Virus record (IMG/VR): IMGVR_UViG_2974597248_000001
Location: 49,479-113,478 of that record
DNA length: 64,000 nt
DNA from: a virus
Lineage: Duplodnaviria; Heunggongvirae; Uroviricota; Caudoviricetes; Demerecviridae
Strand: one strand, 5' to 3'
Shown here: piece by piece, positions 3,353-49,804 of the stretch
Layout: the number at the start of each line of letters is the position of its first letter
How positions within the stretch are numbered: the first letter of the stretch is position 1
Program-made: the position numbers and the translations under genes
Notes under the pieces: generated by a model
What the model was told of the DNA's origin: nothing
Database searches by the model: none
The model's input: only the letters and a program-made list of their open reading frames with translations

Positions 3353-4324
3353 TTAATCATATACTCGCTCTACTATGCACGGGATTACACCACCCGCACG
3401 AATTACTCGAATCTGGCAACCGATCTCTAGATCGAGAGAGTTAATATAATCAACGTTATTAAGAGTTGCTTTAACAATTGTAGCATCATCAATAATTACC
3501 GGTTCGAAATAACCAACTGGGGTTACTTTACCAGAAGCCCCTACCTGCCATTCAACTTTAGTAAGAGTTGTAATCTCGCCTTCTTCATCTTCTTTAATAG
3601 CGAATGCGCCACGAGGAAATTTATTAGTCCAGCCTTCTCGGAAGAATTTGTTGTTGTCATTAATACGAACAACTTTACCATCCGTCGGAATCCATTTAAA
3701 GAAGGAGCGCACATTAACAACTGTTAAGAAATCTTCATTCTCTAGCCAAAGCATATCTTTTAAATACGATTCTGTAATACCTACAGATTCAGCAGAACAC
3801 TGGATACCATATGCAACGAAGATTAAACCGCCTTCTCCGATACGTTGTACGAAATCATCACTATCTTTGAGGTTAATAGCACCAGAGGCAAAGTTACGTT
3901 TATTTTCTACTTCTTTTGTAATTAGAACTTCACCAGTGATTTGGGTAGGTACTTTTTGGGAAATCTTTTTAGGGATGTTCAGCAATCTTACGTTGCTTGT
4001 GACATCATTCCCTAGAATACCATTACCACGAGTTAGTGCTTGAACAAATTCTCCATTAATATATAACAGAGAAATTGCACAACCATCTAACTTATCAGTT
4101 TCTACCTGTCCTAGTGGGTTAAACGGAGGTTTATCTCCACGATTATAATAAACTTTCTGTAAAGAATACATACGATACATATGTGGAATATCGCCTTTAG
4201 GCCCGATCTCTTCTTCTAACGGAAATCTTTTAATCAGACGATCATATTCTTCGTCAGAGATTAAAGACATGCCTTGATAATATGCTTCTTGACAGCGTTT
4301 AATAAATTCTTTTACATTAGTCAT
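3353..4324 (-). CDS. NAD-dependent DNA ligase, N-terminal subunit (adenylation domain with KLDG, plus OB fold)
   Basis: ETDKLDGCAISLLY is the LigA motif I with the active lysine. An OB-domain-like C-terminus follows, and the ORF stops before the Zn finger. Confidence 0.8.
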   Translation of the reverse strand: MTNVKEFIKRCQEAYYQGMSLISDEEYDRLIKRFPLEEEIGPKGDIPHMYRMYSLQKVYYNRGDKPPFNPLGQVETDKLDGCAISLLYINGEFVQALTRGNGILGNDVTSNVRLLNIPKKISQKVPTQITGEVLITKEVENKRNFASGAINLKDSDDFVQRIGEGGLIFVAYGIQCSAESVGITESYLKDMLWLENEDFLTVVNVRSFFKWIPTDGKVVRINDNNKFFREGWTNKFPRGAFAIKEDEEGEITTLTKVEWQVGASGKVTPVGYFEPVIIDDATIVKATLNNVDYINSLDLEIGCQIRVIRAGGVIPCIVERVYD

Positions 4325-5974: not shown

Positions 5975-6385
5975 TTACTTAGTGATAGCTCGGATTGCTT
6001 CTGCCAGATGAGCGGCTGCTTTACCGGTCAGTTTGTCGATAATTGCATCATCCAGAAAATCTGGTGCTAAGCCAGCATCAGAGAATGCTGAACGAAGGTC
6101 GGCATGAGCTTGGGCTTTGGAGGTACGAGAACCACCGGAAGCTTTTTCTCCAGTAGATGCGCTAGATTTAGAAGCGGAGCCAGCAGCTTTCTTGATATAC
6201 AAACCTGCTTTAGTTAGCTTCATACGAAAACCGTTCGGAGTTACACCATTTTCCTGGGCAATTTCGCTAACAATTTCCATGCTAACACCAGGACGTTCAT
6301 CCTCTGGGAATTGCTCCATACGAGCAACGTATTCGGAAGACATTTTTTCGAACAGTTCATCAGTCCACTGAGTTGGAGTAGTCAT
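5975..6385 (-). CDS. hypothetical protein
   Basis: ORF of 136 aa; promoter upstream at 6443-6471. Confidence 0.55.
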   Translation of the reverse strand: MTTPTQWTDELFEKMSSEYVARMEQFPEDERPGVSMEIVSEIAQENGVTPNGFRMKLTKAGLYIKKAAGSASKSSASTGEKASGGSRTSKAQAHADLRSAFSDAGLAPDFLDDAIIDKLTGKAAAHLAEAIRAITK

Positions 6386-30778: not shown

Positions 30779-31428
30779 ATATTCATAAATTAGAGAGTAA
30801 TTCCTATCTAATTTATAAACAGTGGGGTGTGGAAATCACTTATGTAGTAACACTGCCGTCCTAGTATAATTGGTATTATCAAGCCGTAACTGGTGGAAGA
30901 TGTAGGTTCGAATCCTACGGTCGGTAAGAACTGGATAACTGGTGCTTTTAACGTAAAAGCTTCCGAGGTTAGTTGCGCACTGCCTAAACCACGCGGTAGT
31001 TGGTTCCAGACTAACCAACCAGTCTGCTGAATAGTTTTATTACGATTTAACTATGTCCAGGCTAAAGAAGAACTTTAGAAGGTATTCTAGGATAGTGAAG
31101 TTCTTTCTCCATATCGGAGTAGTTTTTCAAGCTATCCACAAAGTGGGAAATGCTGACATGAGAGATGTCACTAATGGTGCACAATAGCACAGGTAATTCG
31201 CGATAACTCCTGTTGAGTAGCAGCAAAAGGTGGGAAGTCATGACCCCAAGCCTAACCGAGTCCTCAATATACCGCAGGACATAACCACTAAGTCACCCTG
31301 ACTTAAACTGGAAAATAATAGACGTTACCGTATTTTGTCTTGAAATACTTAATGAGTGAGACTTATGACTCTCCCGGTATCGTCTGTATTTTTAAGAGTT
31401 TTTACGAGAGTTCTTAAAAATACTTAAA

Positions 31429-33215: not shown

Positions 33216-33293
33216 GGTTCTCAAGCTCATATGGTATGAGCACCCGGCTCATAACCGGAAGGTACGTAGGTTCGAATCCTCGGGGAGCCACCA
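33216..33293 (+). tRNA. tRNA (anticodon CAT; Met/fMet/Ile-lysidine type) with a weak T stem
   Basis: Acceptor GGTTCTC/GGGAGCC (includes G-U pairs), D stem GCTC/GAGC, anticodon stem CCCGG/CCGG around loop CTCATAA. The T stem has only 3 pairs. Confidence 0.45.
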
Positions 33294-34644: not shown

Positions 34645-34715
34645 TGGGGTACGCATAGGTTGCAAATGGGCCTCCAAAACCCATGAAAAGGTTTCGAATA
34701 CCTTTACCCCTGCCA
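34645..34715 (+). tRNA. tRNA-Trp (CCA), short form
   Basis: Acceptor TGGGGTA/TACCCCT (1-72 U-U mismatch), anticodon loop CTCCAAA, T arm AAGGT-TTCGAAT-ACCTT, CCA. Confidence 0.45.
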
Positions 34716-35739: not shown

Positions 35740-35841
35740 AATTCTGTGTAGAGTTAAGTAAACCGGTAGCCAACCATCTATCATTGCTGACATCGAATTC
35801 AGCCACAGATACCATTTTCATTAATAACTGAGGAAACAAGC

Positions 35842-36290: not shown

Positions 36291-36366
36291 ACATCCATAG
36301 CTCAATGGTTAGAGCTACCGCCTCTTAAGCGGAGGGTTCTAGGTTCAAGTCCTAGTGGGTGTACCA
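36291..36366 (+). tRNA. tRNA-Lys (CTT)
   Basis: Acceptor ACATCCA/TGGGTGT, D stem GCTC/GAGC, anticodon loop CTCTTAA, T arm CTAGG-TTCAAGT-CCTAG, CCA. Confidence 0.5.
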
Positions 36367-36485
36367 AATTTCAGTGCAGAACACGGAGCTAGCAATTCGG
36401 AAGTGCTGACTCATGATAAGCTGCCTATGTACTTGCGAAGCGGTCGAGTCCAAGACTCGGACTCTTGCACTGAAAATAATCAAAC

Positions 36486-36606
36486 ATTCTAGCGTGGTTG
36501 ATGGGGAAACCAGCTTGGCTAGGGCAGAAGCTCGTTCGATTCGAGTGAAAGAATGGTTCTCGTAAGTCCGCACAAGTGATAACAGGTTCGAGTCCTGTCT
36601 AGAATG
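36486..36606 (+). ncRNA. 121-nt tRNA-like stable RNA candidate (7-bp acceptor-like end pairing plus T arm, 50-nt internal insertion)
   Basis: ATTCTAG (36486-92) pairs perfectly with CTAGAAT (36599-605). A T arm ACAGG-TTCGAGT-CCTGT and an internal hairpin GCTCG-TTCGATT-CGAGT are present. No ORF. Confidence 0.4.
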
Positions 36607-36756
36607 ACACTATAAAGTTTACTTATTATGTAGGTTCCGATAGATCGGCGGGTCTATTCTGGCAGTTAAGAGAAGTCTCGCAAACTTCTTTGTCAGCCGT
36701 GGGGTTGGTAGCCTCCAGGTGGCCTACACAATAAGTAAATTTATTAAAAAATTCAT

Positions 36757-36785
36757 TTGCTATTTCGCTTAACTATCTGTATAAT
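36757..36785 (+). promoter_or_regulatory. T5-early-type sigma70 promoter
   Basis: TTGCTA-17-TATAAT. Confidence 0.6.
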
Positions 36786-36817
36786 ATATTTTATAAAGTG
36801 AAGAGAAGGAAAGCAAA

Positions 36818-36976
36818 ATGAAACACAAGATAGCTCAAGTTTTTATGGCATTATGGTGTATGCCAATAGCTATAACAGCATTTAATTTAGATACTCTTAC
36901 TATAGAAGAAAAATGTATCGGATTAGTTAGCGGCTTTAGTATGTTGGGCTTATCTTTGTTGTGGTTGAAGAAATAA
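36818..36976 (+). CDS. small membrane protein
   Basis: 52 aa with a hydrophobic core; promoter at 36757-36785. Confidence 0.4.
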   Translation: MKHKIAQVFMALWCMPIAITAFNLDTLTIEEKCIGLVSGFSMLGLSLLWLKK

Positions 36977-36980
36977 TATT

Positions 36981-37058
36981 CTCCGTGTAGCTCAGTTTGG
37001 CCAGAGCGTTTCGTTTGGGGCGATAGGGTCGGGGGTTCAAATCCTCCCACGGAGACCA
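36981..37058 (+). tRNA. tRNA-Pro (TGG)
   Basis: Acceptor CTCCGTG/CACGGAG, D stem GCTC/GAGC, anticodon loop TTTGGGG, T arm GGGGG-TTCAAAT-CCTCC, CCA. Confidence 0.55.
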
Positions 37059-37064
37059 AACAAT

Positions 37065-37142
37065 TGCGGGTTAGATCTCTGGCAGAGATCGCTAGTCTCA
37101 TAAGCTAGAAAGAGGTAGGTTCGATTCCTGCACCCGCTTCCA
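37065..37142 (+). tRNA. tRNA (CAT; Met/fMet/Ile-lysidine type)
   Basis: Acceptor TGCGGGT/ACCCGCT, D stem GATC/GATC, anticodon stem CTAGT/GCTAG around loop CTCATAA, T arm GTAGG-TTCGATT-CCTGC, CCA. Confidence 0.55.
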
Positions 37143-37331
37143 TTTTAATAGAGGATTTCGAAATGAAAGTATTTCGATTAGTAGTAAGTGACAAACGGTT
37201 AGGTAAGAATACATCAAAATCCTTACTCGCTCATTATGGTAAAAATTGGGATGAAGTAATGGTAGAGTTTAGTACTAATCACCCTTACTTGAAAGTTCAC
37301 TCTATTAAAGAAGTATACAATGGTTACTAAT

Positions 37332-37410
37332 AGATCGCTAGCTCAATAGGTTTAGTAGCATCCGACTTTTAATCGGAAGGTTCTGGGTTCGAGTCCCAGG
37401 CGATCTACCA
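37332..37410 (+). tRNA. tRNA-Lys (TTT)
   Basis: Acceptor AGATCGC/GCGATCT, anticodon stem TCCGA/TCGGA around loop CTTTTAA, T arm CTGGG-TTCGAGT-CCCAG, CCA. Confidence 0.65.
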
Positions 37411-37428
37411 ATTTCAAGAAAAACGCGG

Positions 37429-37457
37429 TTGCTTGATGCTTAATTTCTTGTTATAAT
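37429..37457 (+). promoter_or_regulatory. T5-early-type sigma70 promoter followed by a 330-nt ORF-less leader
   Basis: TTGCTT-17-TATAAT. The next gene is tRNA-Ala at 37790. Confidence 0.55.
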
Positions 37458-37789
37458 ATTTATATAAATTGATGCGAAAATAGCTGCCTAGATACCAGGT
37501 GTATGACGTCTACACTAGCAGAGCTACCGAAAAAGAGATCCTAAGGATAAACGTCGTAGCAAAATTAGTCTGGTATCCATCAATTTAGTTCACTAAGGTA
37601 TTAGCTCGACCTAGGACTGGCTGCCAAAAAGCACGATCCCTACGATTCGGGAGAAGTTCTAGATTAGTCCACTAGATTCATAGGCAACTGAATAGTGTAT
37701 CGGGTTTGCGAGATGACGCGGCTCCTTCCGCTCAAAGCGAAGGTGCTGTAGTTACGCCGAGCTAATAGCCTTAGTAAACTAAAGAATTT

Positions 37790-37864
37790 GGGCGAATAGT
37801 GTCAGCGGGAGCACACCAGACTTGCAATCTGGTAGGGAGGGTTCGAGTCCCTCTTTGTCCACCA
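37790..37864 (+). tRNA. tRNA-Ala (TGC)
   Basis: Acceptor GGGCGAA/TTTGTCC (with G-U pairs), D stem GTGT/GCAC, anticodon stem CCAGA/TCTGG around loop CTTGCAA, T arm GAGGG-TTCGAGT-CCCTC, CCA. Confidence 0.6.
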
Positions 37865-37869
37865 AATAT

Positions 37870-37946
37870 GCGTGATTGATGGAATGGGCATACATACCGT
37901 CCTTAGAAGTCGGGTTTTGAGGGTTCGAATCCCTTGTCACGCACCA
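37870..37946 (+). tRNA. tRNA-like (anticodon TAG by position; atypical D / anticodon-stem junction)
   Basis: Acceptor GCGTGAT/GTCACGC, T arm GAGGG-TTCGAAT-CCCTT, CCA. The anticodon stem CCGTC/GTCGG has one mismatch around loop CTTAGAA. Confidence 0.35.
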
Positions 37947-38058
37947 AATTTGATGGTCAGAGTAAATTAAACCTACTATCTCGGTTGAGCTGTTTTAATG
38001 GGTTCGAATCCCAGCGAGGCGTAACTGCCTGGTGTGATAGAGGCATCATCTTATTATT

Positions 38059-38149
38059 GGAAGAGCAAATCGAATTGGCGACGAAAACCGCTTGGAAAGT
38101 GGCTGACTGGTAAAACGGCTTGAGAGTTCAAATCTCTCCTCTTCCGCCA
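38059..38149 (+). tRNA. class II-length tRNA-like gene, anticodon arm unresolved
   Basis: Perfect acceptor GGAAGAG/CTCTTCC, T arm GAGAG-TTCAAAT-CTCTC, CCA. I could not fold the internal 50 nt into a canonical anticodon arm. Confidence 0.3.
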
Positions 38150-38155
38150 AACAAT

Positions 38156-38245
38156 AGAAGATAGGACGTAGTGGTACGTAACTGGTCTTGAAAACCAGCC
38201 CGCTGTAGCGATACGGTGATGGTTCGACTCCATTATCTTCTGCCA
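38156..38245 (+). tRNA. tRNA-Ser (TGA), class II
   Basis: Acceptor AGAAGAT/ATCTTCT, anticodon stem CTGGT/ACCAG around loop CTTGAAA, long variable arm, T arm GATGG-TTCGACT-CCATT, CCA. Confidence 0.65.
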
Positions 38246-38265
38246 ATTAACTATAAGGAAATCTT

Positions 38266-38439
38266 ATGAGCAAAACAGTTACTGTAACAATGAAGGATGG
38301 TAAAAAATTTAAAGCATGTCTTCATGAAACAGATAGGGGATGGATGGCTTATTTGCCACACCTAGATTCCACCGGGTATGGAATGACCCAACGTGAAGCT
38401 ATTGTTGATGCATTAAATGAGGCTTCTGCTGGTTTATAA
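38266..38439 (+). CDS. small hypothetical protein
   Basis: 57 aa; RBS AAGGAAAT. Confidence 0.4.
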   Translation: MSKTVTVTMKDGKKFKACLHETDRGWMAYLPHLDSTGYGMTQREAIVDALNEASAGL

Positions 38440-38448
38440 AAAAATTCT

Positions 38449-38580
38449 TGAAGTATGCCGGAATCGGTAGACGGGGCTGCCTAAAAGGTTTATAGGGAAC
38501 ATCCACTCCCTGCAACATACCTCATAAAGCGGCTGAGATAAATGGTCTATCTCGTGAAGGTTCAAGTCCTTCTACTTCTT
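38449..38580 (+). ncRNA. 130-nt tRNA-like RNA candidate (D-loop-like AATCGGTAGAC, T arm GAAGG-TTCAAGT-CCTTC, 6/7 end pairing)
   Basis: The end pairing TGAAGTA/TACTTCT has 6 of 7 pairs. CTTCTACT (38568-79) is complementary to AGTAGAAG (38671-82) further downstream. Confidence 0.3.
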
Positions 38581-38809
38581 GATACATCTATGGCTCAAAG
38601 TGTAACGGTGCTATTTGATGCTCTTGGTAAGACTTCCCCGACATGCGTTCGGGAGTAAGCTACTACGGCTAGAGTAGAAGAGTTTCGGAGAGCCGCCACA
38701 ATTGAAAATTCGTACTCGTCTTGAGCTGCGCGCAATAGGAGATAACTTGATTAGTATTCTAGAACATGCTAATTGAGGATGGTTTCGCTAACCCTGCGAG
38801 TTTTCAATT

Positions 38810-38886
38810 GTGGCTATATCATAATTGGTTAATGATCCTGATTGTGAATCAGGCCTATGTGGATTCGAATTCCACTAGCCACCCCA
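38810..38886 (+). tRNA. tRNA-His (GTG)
   Basis: Acceptor GTGGCTA/TAGCCAC, D stem TCAT/ATGA, anticodon stem CCTGA/TCAGG around loop TTGTGAA, T arm GTGGA-TTCGAAT-TCCAC, CCA. Confidence 0.65.
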
Positions 38887-38911
38887 AATTAACTTAAATA
38901 GGAAATAAAAT

Positions 38912-39513: not shown

Positions 39514-39589
39514 GCGGTTAAGCACACGGGTTGTGTCGCAGGCCTTCCAAGCCTCGCTGAGTAGGGTTCGATTCCCTCTAGCCGCTCCA
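39514..39589 (+). tRNA. tRNA-Gly (TCC)
   Basis: Acceptor GCGGTTA/TAGCCGC, anticodon loop CTTCCAA, T arm TAGGG-TTCGATT-CCCTC, CCA. Confidence 0.5.
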
Positions 39590-49280: not shown

Positions 49281-49804
49281 TTACACAGGATACTCTTAAA
49301 CAGATGTTCAATTACGACCCTGAAACGGGAATCTTTACATGGAAAGTAAGTAGAGGACCGAAAAAGAAGGGCGATATAGCAGGAACACTCACTAAAGATG
49401 GATACATTAGAATAACCATTAATAAACGCCCTTATTATGCGCAGTAATTAGCATGTCTATACATGACTGGAGAATGGCCAGAGCATGAGATGGACCATGA
49501 AAATCGCATAACCTATGATAATAGGTGGTGTAATATTCGTAATGCTACTAAACAGGAAAATCTAAGAAATAGGAAGGCATGGGGTAAATCCGGCTATTTA
49601 GGAGTTTCATGGAATCGAGGTAAGTGGCAAGTCTACGTCGTGAACTCAAATGGAGAAAGTATATCCGGCGGGCGTTTTGAACATAAAGATTTAGAATTGG
49701 CAGTTAAATCAGCCAATACTTTAAGAGCAAAATTGCACGGGGAACGTGCTATTTTTGAAGAATTTACAGGATATATACCTAATATTGGAGAGTTAAATAA
49801 ATGA
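49277..49804 (+). pseudogene. HNH homing endonuclease disrupted by an in-frame TAA at 49445-49447
   Basis: N-terminal 56 codons (MITQDTLKQMFNYDPETGIF...) and the C-terminal HNH plus AP2 part (EMDHENRITYDNRWCN...) lie in the same frame. They align end to end with the intact paralog at 53337..53873; the stop falls where the paralog has Arg. Confidence 0.7.

Follow-up and report, generated by a model that had tools for sequence, protein, structure and literature searches.

Two groups of bacteriophage RNAs are the closest described counterparts of the genes studied here. In the T5 group, the hand-curated record AJ604531 ('Bacteriophage 5 tRNA gene region') lists rna2 and rna1 as misc_RNA features, 'tRNA-like RNA with unknown functions', and the reference T5 genome AY543070 labels the two genes 'tRNA-like stable RNA with unknown functions'. 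In T4, species 1 and 2 (rnaC and rnaD) are likewise dispensable stable RNAs of about 120-140 nt encoded beside the phage tRNA genes. We analysed a 64,000-nt stretch of viral DNA (the window; positions 49,479 to 113,478 of IMG/VR record IMGVR_UViG_2974597248_000001), in which a first inspection of the letters alone (the sequence-only reading) had proposed two stable RNA genes with tRNA-type ends that are not tRNAs, candidate 1 at 36486-36606 and candidate 2 at 38449-38580. Megablast of 36300-38900 found Salmonella phage SP01 to be 100% identical and more than 100 T5-like phages (Demerecviridae) to be 92-97% identical, and by this similarity the window is that of a T5-like phage. Pairwise alignments and BLAST showed that candidate 1 is rna2 (window 36485-36609; 96% identity over 125 nt to AY543070, and 97% identity between rna2 of AJ604531 and the window) and that candidate 2 is rna1 (38447-38591; 98% to AJ604531 and 84% to AY543070). 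The proposal therefore matches the curated annotation; its loci were right, but the annotated T5 ends reach slightly beyond the extents that it gave. RNA2 and RNA1 as objects are already known T5 genes and are not new, and the proposal is a rediscovery, from raw sequence, of two RNA genes long annotated by the T5 community. What is added here is covariation-backed structures, constrained modules at the anticodon end, and the presence of the RNA2 design in the tRNA arrays of unrelated phages. We regard it as likely that RNA2 and RNA1 are genes for non-decoding, tRNA-scaffolded stable RNAs of the T5 group.

Both RNAs lie on the tRNA strand inside phage tRNA transcription units and keep the tRNA 'top half' together with a D arm carrying GG. 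The two loci are conserved in about 480-490 phage records, and compensatory substitutions support both folds, which is far beyond chance. RNA2 has 125 nt, as in T5, and its elements, like those of RNA1, are all on the plus strand. Counting 36486 as position 1 of the RNA2 model, the acceptor stem (1-7/114-120) pairs AUUCUAG (36486-36492) with CUAGAAU (36599-36605), and C36485 could also pair with G36606. It is followed by a D arm at 36495-36512 (stem UGGU/ACCA, 10-13/24-27), whose loop UGAUGGGGAA contains GG, and by an anticodon-stem-like helix (28-32/88-92) between GCUUG (36513-36517) and CAAGU (36573-36577). A 4-nt variable region leads to a genuine T arm, ACAGG-UUCGAGU-CCUGU (97-113; 36582-36598), which the Rfam tRNA model matches. 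The 3' end (36599-36609) comprises the second acceptor strand, the discriminator G36606 (G121) and the tail ACA (36607-36609). All that the sequence-only reading described for candidate 1 is present there, in DNA letters: the 7-bp closure ATTCTAG/CTAGAAT, the D-region-like start (TGGT-TGATGGGGAA-ACCA), the T arm ACAGG-TTCGAGT-CCTGT, and an inner T-arm-like hairpin GCTCG-TTCGATT-CGAGT (36530-36546).

The tRNA frame of RNA2 covaries. All seven acceptor pairs change on both sides, for example to UACGGGG/UCCCGUA in Sugarland and to GGGGCGG/UCGCUCC in the member from record L084; all seven differ between T5 and Sugarland, and they differ again in L084, L095, L021 and L112. Changes on both sides are also found at 4/4 pairs of the D stem, at 5/5 pairs of the anticodon-stem-like helix (98.8% of cells paired) and at 4/5 pairs of the T stem.

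The anticodon loop of RNA2 is replaced by an inner module of about 50 nt (36518-36572; 55 nt between the stem strands). Neither RNA2 nor RNA1 has a 7-nt anticodon loop closed by a 5-bp stem, or a U33/R37 context. The module contains a helix P_in (G36522-C36571, G36523-C36569 and G36524-C36568; G37-C86, G38-C84 and G39-C83 in the model) with G-C to A-U covariation, the partners of its first pair (G37-C86) moving together from G-C to A-U between members. Helix P2, of 2 bp (G36527-C36561 and A36528-U36560; G42-C76 and A43-U75), is 100% paired, and in some members both of its pairs show changes on both sides (GC/AU/UA for one, AU/UA/CG/GC/GU for the other). Inside it stands a second T-arm-like hairpin, CUCG-UUCGAUU-CGAG (46-60; 36531-36545), whose stem covaries (CUCG/CGAG, ACGG/CCGU, AUGG/CCAU, CCCG/CGGG); a relaxed search pattern gave the inner loops UUCAAUU and UUCGACU, which both fit the T-loop consensus UUCRANY. 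Two single strands follow, AAUGG (67-71; 36552-36556) and UAAG-UCC (UAA-N-UCC; 78-84; 36563-36569). Alignment A5 shows no variation in AAUGG or UAA.UCC, though both were also in the search patterns. The sequence-only reading had spoken of an internal insertion. This insertion is no arbitrary stretch: in RNA2 it is a conserved module that takes the place of the anticodon loop, and RNA1 has instead a helix that lengthens the anticodon arm.

A covariance model of RNA2 (R1) was built from nine cleanly aligned sequences of the T5-like and Sugarland types with a structure that we specified. It scores 149 bits over 36486-36609 of the window and matches 22 family members at 50-149 bits; ordinary tRNAs reach 15-35 bits via the shared frame only. 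Of the cells in a 17-member alignment based on the model, 93.8% are canonical, against 65.4% in shuffles; the fitting of this alignment (A8) to the model structure inflates the percentage. In the same alignment, both sides vary at 26 of the 30 pairs, and the covariation score, 0.757, compares with 0.213 for shuffled alignments (0/500 reach it) and falls to 0.08-0.15 when the 3' partners are slid. An all-against-all column scan of a plain MAFFT alignment recovered the RNA2 helices independently. AAUGG, UAA.UCC and the GUUC.A..C hairpin belonged to the search patterns, which makes their constancy in the divergent members partly circular; only in the T5-like, Sugarland and Acinetobacter members, found by BLAST, does it count as independent evidence.

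About 480 phage records carry RNA2, the lowest identities (76-78%) being those of Klebsiella Sugarlandviruses and an Acinetobacter phage fragment. More divergent members came from motif-pattern scans, with the matches filtered, of IMG/VR, of one genome per prokaryotic species and of metagenomes. Members occur in contigs of 159,801 bp (Acinetobacter phage 133, an identity confirmed by BLAST) and 169,947 bp, in contigs of 164 kb and 167 kb, in viral contigs of 12-52 kb, and in tRNA arrays carried by two very long metagenomic contigs. All members examined lie on the tRNA strand within a tRNA array. The inner module is nearly constant across them while the tRNA frame evolves freely; judged from these sequences, the constant part of RNA2 is the anticodon-end module and not the tRNA frame. 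The only Rfam family that matched any member was tRNA. The matches are evidence that RNA2 is part of a wider family of phage tRNA-array RNAs that is absent from Rfam. Among 185,579 species' genomes there were four pattern matches, of which one was real, within a tRNA cluster on a 167-kb contig of T4-like size. We rejected a bacterial housekeeping RNA because this sole true match lies on a phage-sized contig.

Two side observations concern the surroundings of family members. The metagenome contig Ga0308158_10000004 (1.46 Mb; L085 1-8283) has 47 tRNA genes in 8.3 kb with an RNA2-family member at 6023-6141. It far exceeds any phage in size, and the family may therefore also sit in non-phage tRNA arrays. 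In the T4-like-size contigs L012 (5451-5523) and L082 (7053-7127), ARAGORN called tRNAs with a CUA anticodon, labelled tRNA-Pyl, in the same clusters as the RNA2-like element; these may be amber-suppressor tRNAs.

RNA1 (38447-38591) adjoins RNA I (38592-38698) and has a tRNA-Leu-like type-II frame with an extended anticodon arm. Its acceptor-like 5' strand U-GAAGUA (38449-38455) pairs with 38573-38579, with a U38449.U38579 mismatch; the 6/7 end pairing reported for candidate 2 is correct, and the unpaired position is this U.U at 1:72. The closing stem can extend past a second U.U to C38447-G38581. Compensatory changes in the acceptor-like stem include GAAGUA/UACUUC, GGAAUA/UAUUCC and GGAGUA/UACUCC. 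The Rfam tRNA alignment delimits the D arm CCG-GAAUCGGUAGA-CGG (38458-38474), which is tRNA-Leu-like and so nearly invariant that it is beyond covariation testing, and the T arm GAAGG-UUCAAGU-CCUUC (38556-38572), which is 100% paired and almost invariant. Here too the D loop AATCGGTAGAC and the T arm GAAGG-TTCAAGT-CCTTC had been read correctly from the DNA. RNA1 keeps U8, A14, G18G19 and A21, and it has U at position 73. The 7-bp acceptor stem, the D arm with GG and the T arm with G53-UUCRANY-C61 of a tRNA are thus present in RNA2, where they covary, and in RNA1, with U.U at 1:72.

The anticodon arm of RNA1 (38475-38534) is about three times the normal length and has internal loops. Its stem (38475-38480/38529-38534) carries a 48-nt helical extension with the helices E1 (38486-38489/38519-38522) and E2 (38493-38498/38507-38512). 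Across the three helices of the arm, 8 pairs change on both sides. The apical loop of 8 nt, ACAUCCAC (38499-38506), is near-invariant, and reference T5 has ACAUCCGC. The long variable arm GAGAUA-AAUGGUC-UAUCUC (38535-38553) has 6 bp, 100% paired, with one pair showing A-U/U-A/C-G changes, and its loop AAUGGUC is invariant. Complementarity of the apical loop to the variable-arm loop, to the RNA2 D loop and to the 3' end of 16S rRNA, compared by eye, amounted to only 3-5 bp. In 15 distinct sequences, the proposed RNA1 structure has 97.7% canonical cells against 89.6% when shuffled, 14 pairs change on both sides, and the covariation score is 0.295 compared with 0.139 in shuffles (0/500 reach it) and 0.03-0.08 when slid. 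RNAalifold recovered all RNA1 helices independently, the three of the anticodon arm included, except the invariant D arm. About 490 phage records carry RNA1. A motif scan of IMG/VR found it only in contigs of 95-121 kb and one 14.5-kb fragment, all T5-like; this was a motif scan, and no covariance-model search was made.

Standard detectors agree that neither RNA is an ordinary tRNA. ARAGORN called neither of them and no transfer-messenger RNA (tmRNA) in the window, and Rfam at gathering thresholds matched neither. At E<=10, Rfam gave only weak tRNA, tRNA-Sec and snoRNA noise at the two loci, and no curated family. At 27.4 bits, short of the gathering threshold of 29, the tRNA model spans RNA1 at 38449-38580, reading a long variable arm and a 45-nt insertion in the anticodon loop; on RNA2 it covers the acceptor and T arm only, with 18 bits. 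We rejected a canonical tRNA (RF00005) for both, on these scores and the missing anticodon loop. The sequence-only reading would have been overturned by two ordinary adjacent tRNAs in either interval, but 121-132 nt is too short for two and neither program folds the intervals in that way, so that this condition does not refute it. A tmRNA was rejected as well: ARAGORN found none, the third acceptor pair is U3-A70 in RNA2 and A3-U70 in RNA1, and neither RNA contains a tag open reading frame (ORF). A protein-coding origin was also rejected. No ORF spans RNA2 or RNA1, only partial ORFs of 38-73 aa overlap them, and substitutions there are compensatory, not synonymous. Thermodynamic stability alone is no evidence for either RNA: the z-score of the minimum free energy is -0.47 for the RNA2 candidate and -2.24 for the RNA1 candidate, and the minimum free energy fold of RNA2, whose inner part conflicts with the covariation, is uninformative alone.

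The position of the inserts might suggest intron-bearing tRNA genes from which the insert is spliced out to leave an ordinary decoding tRNA. The tRNA frame is a good one and the insert falls precisely at its anticodon loop, and bacterial and phage tRNA genes can hold group I introns in the anticodon loop. However, at 45-55 nt the inserts fall far below the size of a group I or II intron, and no model of an intron or ribozyme matched at E<=10. The flanks (GCUA...GCA, ACUU...GCA, GCGA...AUA) would give C33 and no purine at 37, the RNA1 arm is a continuous helix from which no loop can be reconstituted, and the annotated stable species have the unspliced lengths of 125 and 144 nt. We give splicing hardly any credence. 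It is also highly improbable that the two genes are decaying, functionless tRNA pseudogenes disrupted by insertions, derived from tRNA-Leu in the case of RNA1. The RNA1 score close to the tRNA gathering threshold (27.4 against 29), the mutation of CCA to ACA in RNA2 of T5-type phages and the dispensability of the T5 tRNA region (PMC11464382) would fit decay. Yet the inserts themselves show compensatory changes and invariant loops, the loci have been kept in about 480 genomes as well as in remote phage lineages, and the T5 records annotate stable RNAs.

The 3' ends of RNA2 vary. T5-type RNA2 tails are ACA, ACU, ACC or AUA, and the tails of relatives differ: GCCA in UTK0010, UCCA in Sugarland, ACCA in L021 and AACA in L112. 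The neighbouring tRNA genes in the window all encode CCA, and RNA2 has G-ACA. As a separate observation, ACA follows the discriminator in three unrelated tRNA-like RNAs, namely T5-type RNA2 (G-ACA; window 36607-36609), T4 rnaC (U-ACA; L078 1409-1411) and the member of L112 (A-ACA; 3829-3831). The shared ends may be a coincidence or may reflect a common route of 3'-end maturation.

Three RNA2-family members form a subgroup with G3.U70 and A73 (L084 808-929; L113 860-981 on the minus strand; L124 5939-6059). Their acceptor is GGGGCG(G/A)/UCGCUCC, they have U8, A14 and G18G19, and they pass the Rfam tRNA gathering score (34-42 bits) with 52-53 nt in place of the 7-nt anticodon loop. No relative of the subgroup was found in the cultured-phage collection. 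These members bear on the idea that the RNAs are CCA-ended, tRNA-like adaptors, charged by synthetases indifferent to the anticodon and employed apart from ordinary decoding, for instance for tmRNA-like entry into stalled ribosomes or as amino-acid donors for a transferase. In the subgroup G1-C72, G2-C71, G3.U70 and G4-C69 precede A73; together these make up the alanine identity set, and AlaRS reads alanine identity in the acceptor stem alone. Its passing of the tRNA score, the encoded N-CCA of UTK0010, Sugarland and L021, and the tRNA-Leu-like D loop and long variable arm of RNA1 also speak for charging, and LeuRS does not read the anticodon. In the family as a whole, however, acceptors and discriminators are fully divergent (G, U or A at 73) and have no common identity. 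The ACA, ACU, ACC and AUA tails of T5-type RNA2 speak against it too, RNA1 has U73, no CCA and a closed end, ARAGORN found no tmRNA, and a tag reading frame is absent. We consider such adaptors very unlikely.

A rival with somewhat more to commend it, but still unlikely in our view, is that the RNAs act only in cis, as tRNA-shaped 'punctuation' or stability elements that guide RNase P and 3' processing of the long transcripts of tRNAs and small ORFs and protect flanking mRNAs. Both sit between small ORFs, stable RNAs and tRNAs, RNA2 ends its unit upstream of a P13a-like promoter, and RNA1 lacks NCCA and abuts RNA I. A processing signal, however, needs only an acceptor and T-arm minihelix, and what is most conserved is the inner module of RNA2 and the apical and variable-arm loops of RNA1. 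Moreover, the RNA2 module is kept in unrelated phages with different flanks.

We return to non-decoding RNAs on a tRNA scaffold. It is very likely that RNA2 and RNA1 are processed, non-decoding, functional tRNA-like RNAs. They cannot decode, because each lacks a 7-nt anticodon loop. Since they cannot read codons, tRNA mimicry would be their most plausible job. The tRNA-like frame would direct host tRNA enzymes (5' cleavage by RNase P, trimming of the 3' end and repair of CCA) to excise the RNAs from a polycistronic transcript, and would confer metabolic stability as in engineered 'tRNA scaffolds'. Maturation of the tRNA type is plausible, because the genes lie in same-strand tRNA arrays, several members encode N-CCA and three members of the RNA2 family pass the tRNA gathering score. 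RNase P and CCA-type end maturation is less certain for RNA1 than for RNA2, because RNA1 has no NCCA and its closing stem continues outward. The conserved anticodon-end module might then be the working surface, acting in trans. As a tRNA mimic, each RNA might bind or titrate a factor that identifies tRNAs by the body, T arm or elbow; candidate targets are a defence nuclease of the host that attacks tRNAs, or an enzyme that processes or modifies them. It is a speculation that the second G-UUCRANY-C hairpin of RNA2 and the adjacent AAUGG strand could imitate the T-loop/D-loop 'elbow'.

Recent work treats the tRNA cluster that holds RNA2 and RNA1 as an anti-defence locus. In the laboratory T5 can do without its tRNA region (PMC11464382), in keeping with an accessory or anti-defence role, and T5 tRNAs counter tRNA-cleaving defences (PMC11464382; PMC10644984; context PMC13056530). 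These two facts make a decoy role attractive, and we put forward a specific role of RNA2 and RNA1 as decoys or tRNA mimics as a tentative suggestion. A wider reading, which we hold to be doubtful, is that the RNA2 family, with T5 as its representative, comprises widespread phage RNAs, not in Rfam 15, that act in trans as tRNA mimics, on a tRNA scaffold in which a 'second elbow' module (T-loop hairpin, AAUGG and UAA-N-UCC) takes the place of the anticodon loop. A literature search found no paper on this family. If the wider reading is true, the target that the family neutralises or titrates would be a conserved factor specific for tRNA bodies or T arms, such as a tRNA-targeting defence nuclease, and this activity would complement the decoding phage tRNAs that counter PARIS, retron and PrrC-type systems.

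Several points weigh against our interpretation, beyond the fitted alignment and the partly circular motif invariance described above. T5-type RNA2 has C8 and U14 and thus lacks U8 and A14, and the acceptor stem is weak or absent in the RNA2 members of T4-like Acinetobacter phages. RNA1 is without an NCCA end, and its closing stem runs beyond 1:72, to 14 bp in Sugarland. The label 'stable RNA' rests on the depositors' annotation, our analysis points to no binding partner for a decoy role, and the literature search gave no functional study of RNA2 or RNA1 and none on a decoy role. The results added here make the old question of RNA2 and RNA1 function testable, and they would justify a new curated RNA family.

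The genomic setting of both genes in the window is that of T5 and phage 5. The region 30.8-40.9 kb is a dense cluster of tRNA genes, all on one strand, in which ARAGORN called 22 tRNAs and Rfam 24. RNA2 (36485) follows tRNA-Asp (36037) and precedes rnaIV (36628), a promoter-like site (36757) and tRNA-Pro (36981), an order identical to that of T5; it stands at the end of its transcription unit, upstream of the P13a-like promoter at 36757-36785. RNA1 adjoins rnaI (38592), followed by rnaIII (38703) and tRNA-His (38810), in synteny with the annotated rna1. Five other T5 stable RNAs map to the window at 92-99% identity: rna3 (35742-35814), rnaIV (36628-36730), rna2H (37599-37770), rnaI (38592-38698) and rnaIII (38703-38808). 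Seven stable RNA genes other than tRNAs, RNA1 and RNA2 included, are thus interleaved with the tRNAs. Automatically annotated T5-like genomes are mostly blank over the RNA2 and RNA1 loci or read 'hypothetical protein' there.

The segment between tRNA-Asp and RNA2 departs from T5. A tRNA-Lys(CUU) gene lies at 36291-36366, between the ORF after tRNA-Asp and RNA2, so that the window has two tRNA-Lys genes (CUU and UUU). No such tRNA occurs at this place in T5 and phage 5, where an ORF stands instead (T5.067 / trn 2.10). The second tRNA-Lys may matter, as tRNA-Lys is a target of PARIS and PrrC-type defences. Directly 5' of RNA2 is a 114-nt element (36367-36480) with an 11-bp closing stem, UUCAGUGCAGA.../...UCUUGCACUGAA. 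Many Tequintaviruses conserve it to at least 95%, and neither AY543070 nor AJ604531 annotates it. Its variation is too low for a covariation test, and in place of the GAGUCC of the window most relatives have GUGUCC, a change that disrupts one predicted hairpin. Elsewhere in the cluster, homologues of T5 tRNA-Trp (34645-34715, 99%) and tRNA-Gly(UCC) (39514-39589, 100%) were missed by ARAGORN and by Rfam at gathering thresholds. The position of phage 5 tRNA-Ser2(GGA) (about 38059-38150), likewise missed by both, gave only a 19.7-bit tRNA-Sec match. These three tRNAs are atypical enough to evade standard detectors. Two tRNAs, at 30855-30926 and 33216-33290 (35.5 and 40.3 bits), were called by Rfam and not by ARAGORN.

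Among known systems, rna2 and rna1 of T5, BF23 and phage 5 (AY543070, AJ604531) are the same genes as those of the window, with 84-98% identity. They have the same annotated lengths and stand in the same order among the tRNAs and rna3, rnaIV, rna2H, rnaI and rnaIII, and they differ from the window by point substitutions only, several of them compensatory. The region of the window differs from phage 5 and T5 in the extra tRNA-Lys(CUU) and the conserved structured element upstream of RNA2, where those phages have the ORF. T4 rnaC resembles RNA2 in layout: it has a closing stem and a long arm, a hairpin of 10 bp and, near the 3' end, a T arm CCGGG-UUCGAAU-CCCGG followed by 7 nt and U-ACA. Unlike RNA2, it is without a second T-loop hairpin, AAUGG and UAA.UCC, and rnaD has no T arm. 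The T4 comparison made in the sequence-only reading holds as an analogy of design but not as homology, since the RNA2 covariance model matches neither rnaC nor rnaD. Over the T4 tRNA region R1 matches only T4 tRNAs, and we rejected homology for RNA2; this test covered 1409-1547 and 1554-1672 of L078 with the RNA2 model only, and inspection by eye showed no core motifs in common. The T4 RNAs rnaC and rnaD are analogues by design of RNA2 and not homologues.

Canonical tRNAs (RF00005) share with RNA2 and RNA1 the acceptor-type stem, the D arm with GG, the UUCRANY T loop and the position in tRNA arrays, and RNA1 resembles type-II tRNA-Leu in its D loop GAAUCGGUAGA and long variable arm. In contrast to these tRNAs, RNA2 and RNA1 have no 7-nt anticodon loop and are 124-145 nt long. 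The tRNA-like domain of tmRNA also has a tRNA top half without an anticodon and an internal non-tRNA domain, and the G3.U70/A73 acceptor of tmRNA and tRNA-Ala is mirrored in one subgroup of the RNA2 family. Unlike tmRNA, the phage RNAs have no tag ORF or series of pseudoknots and are 3-4 times shorter, and RNA2 has a genuine D stem and U3-A70. In the engineered 'tRNA scaffold', a functional RNA replaces the anticodon loop, and the product is processed and stable in E. coli. RNA2 and RNA1 are similar to it in that the acceptor, D arm and T arm are intact and a foreign module stands on the anticodon stem. They differ from it in being natural, conserved phage genes.

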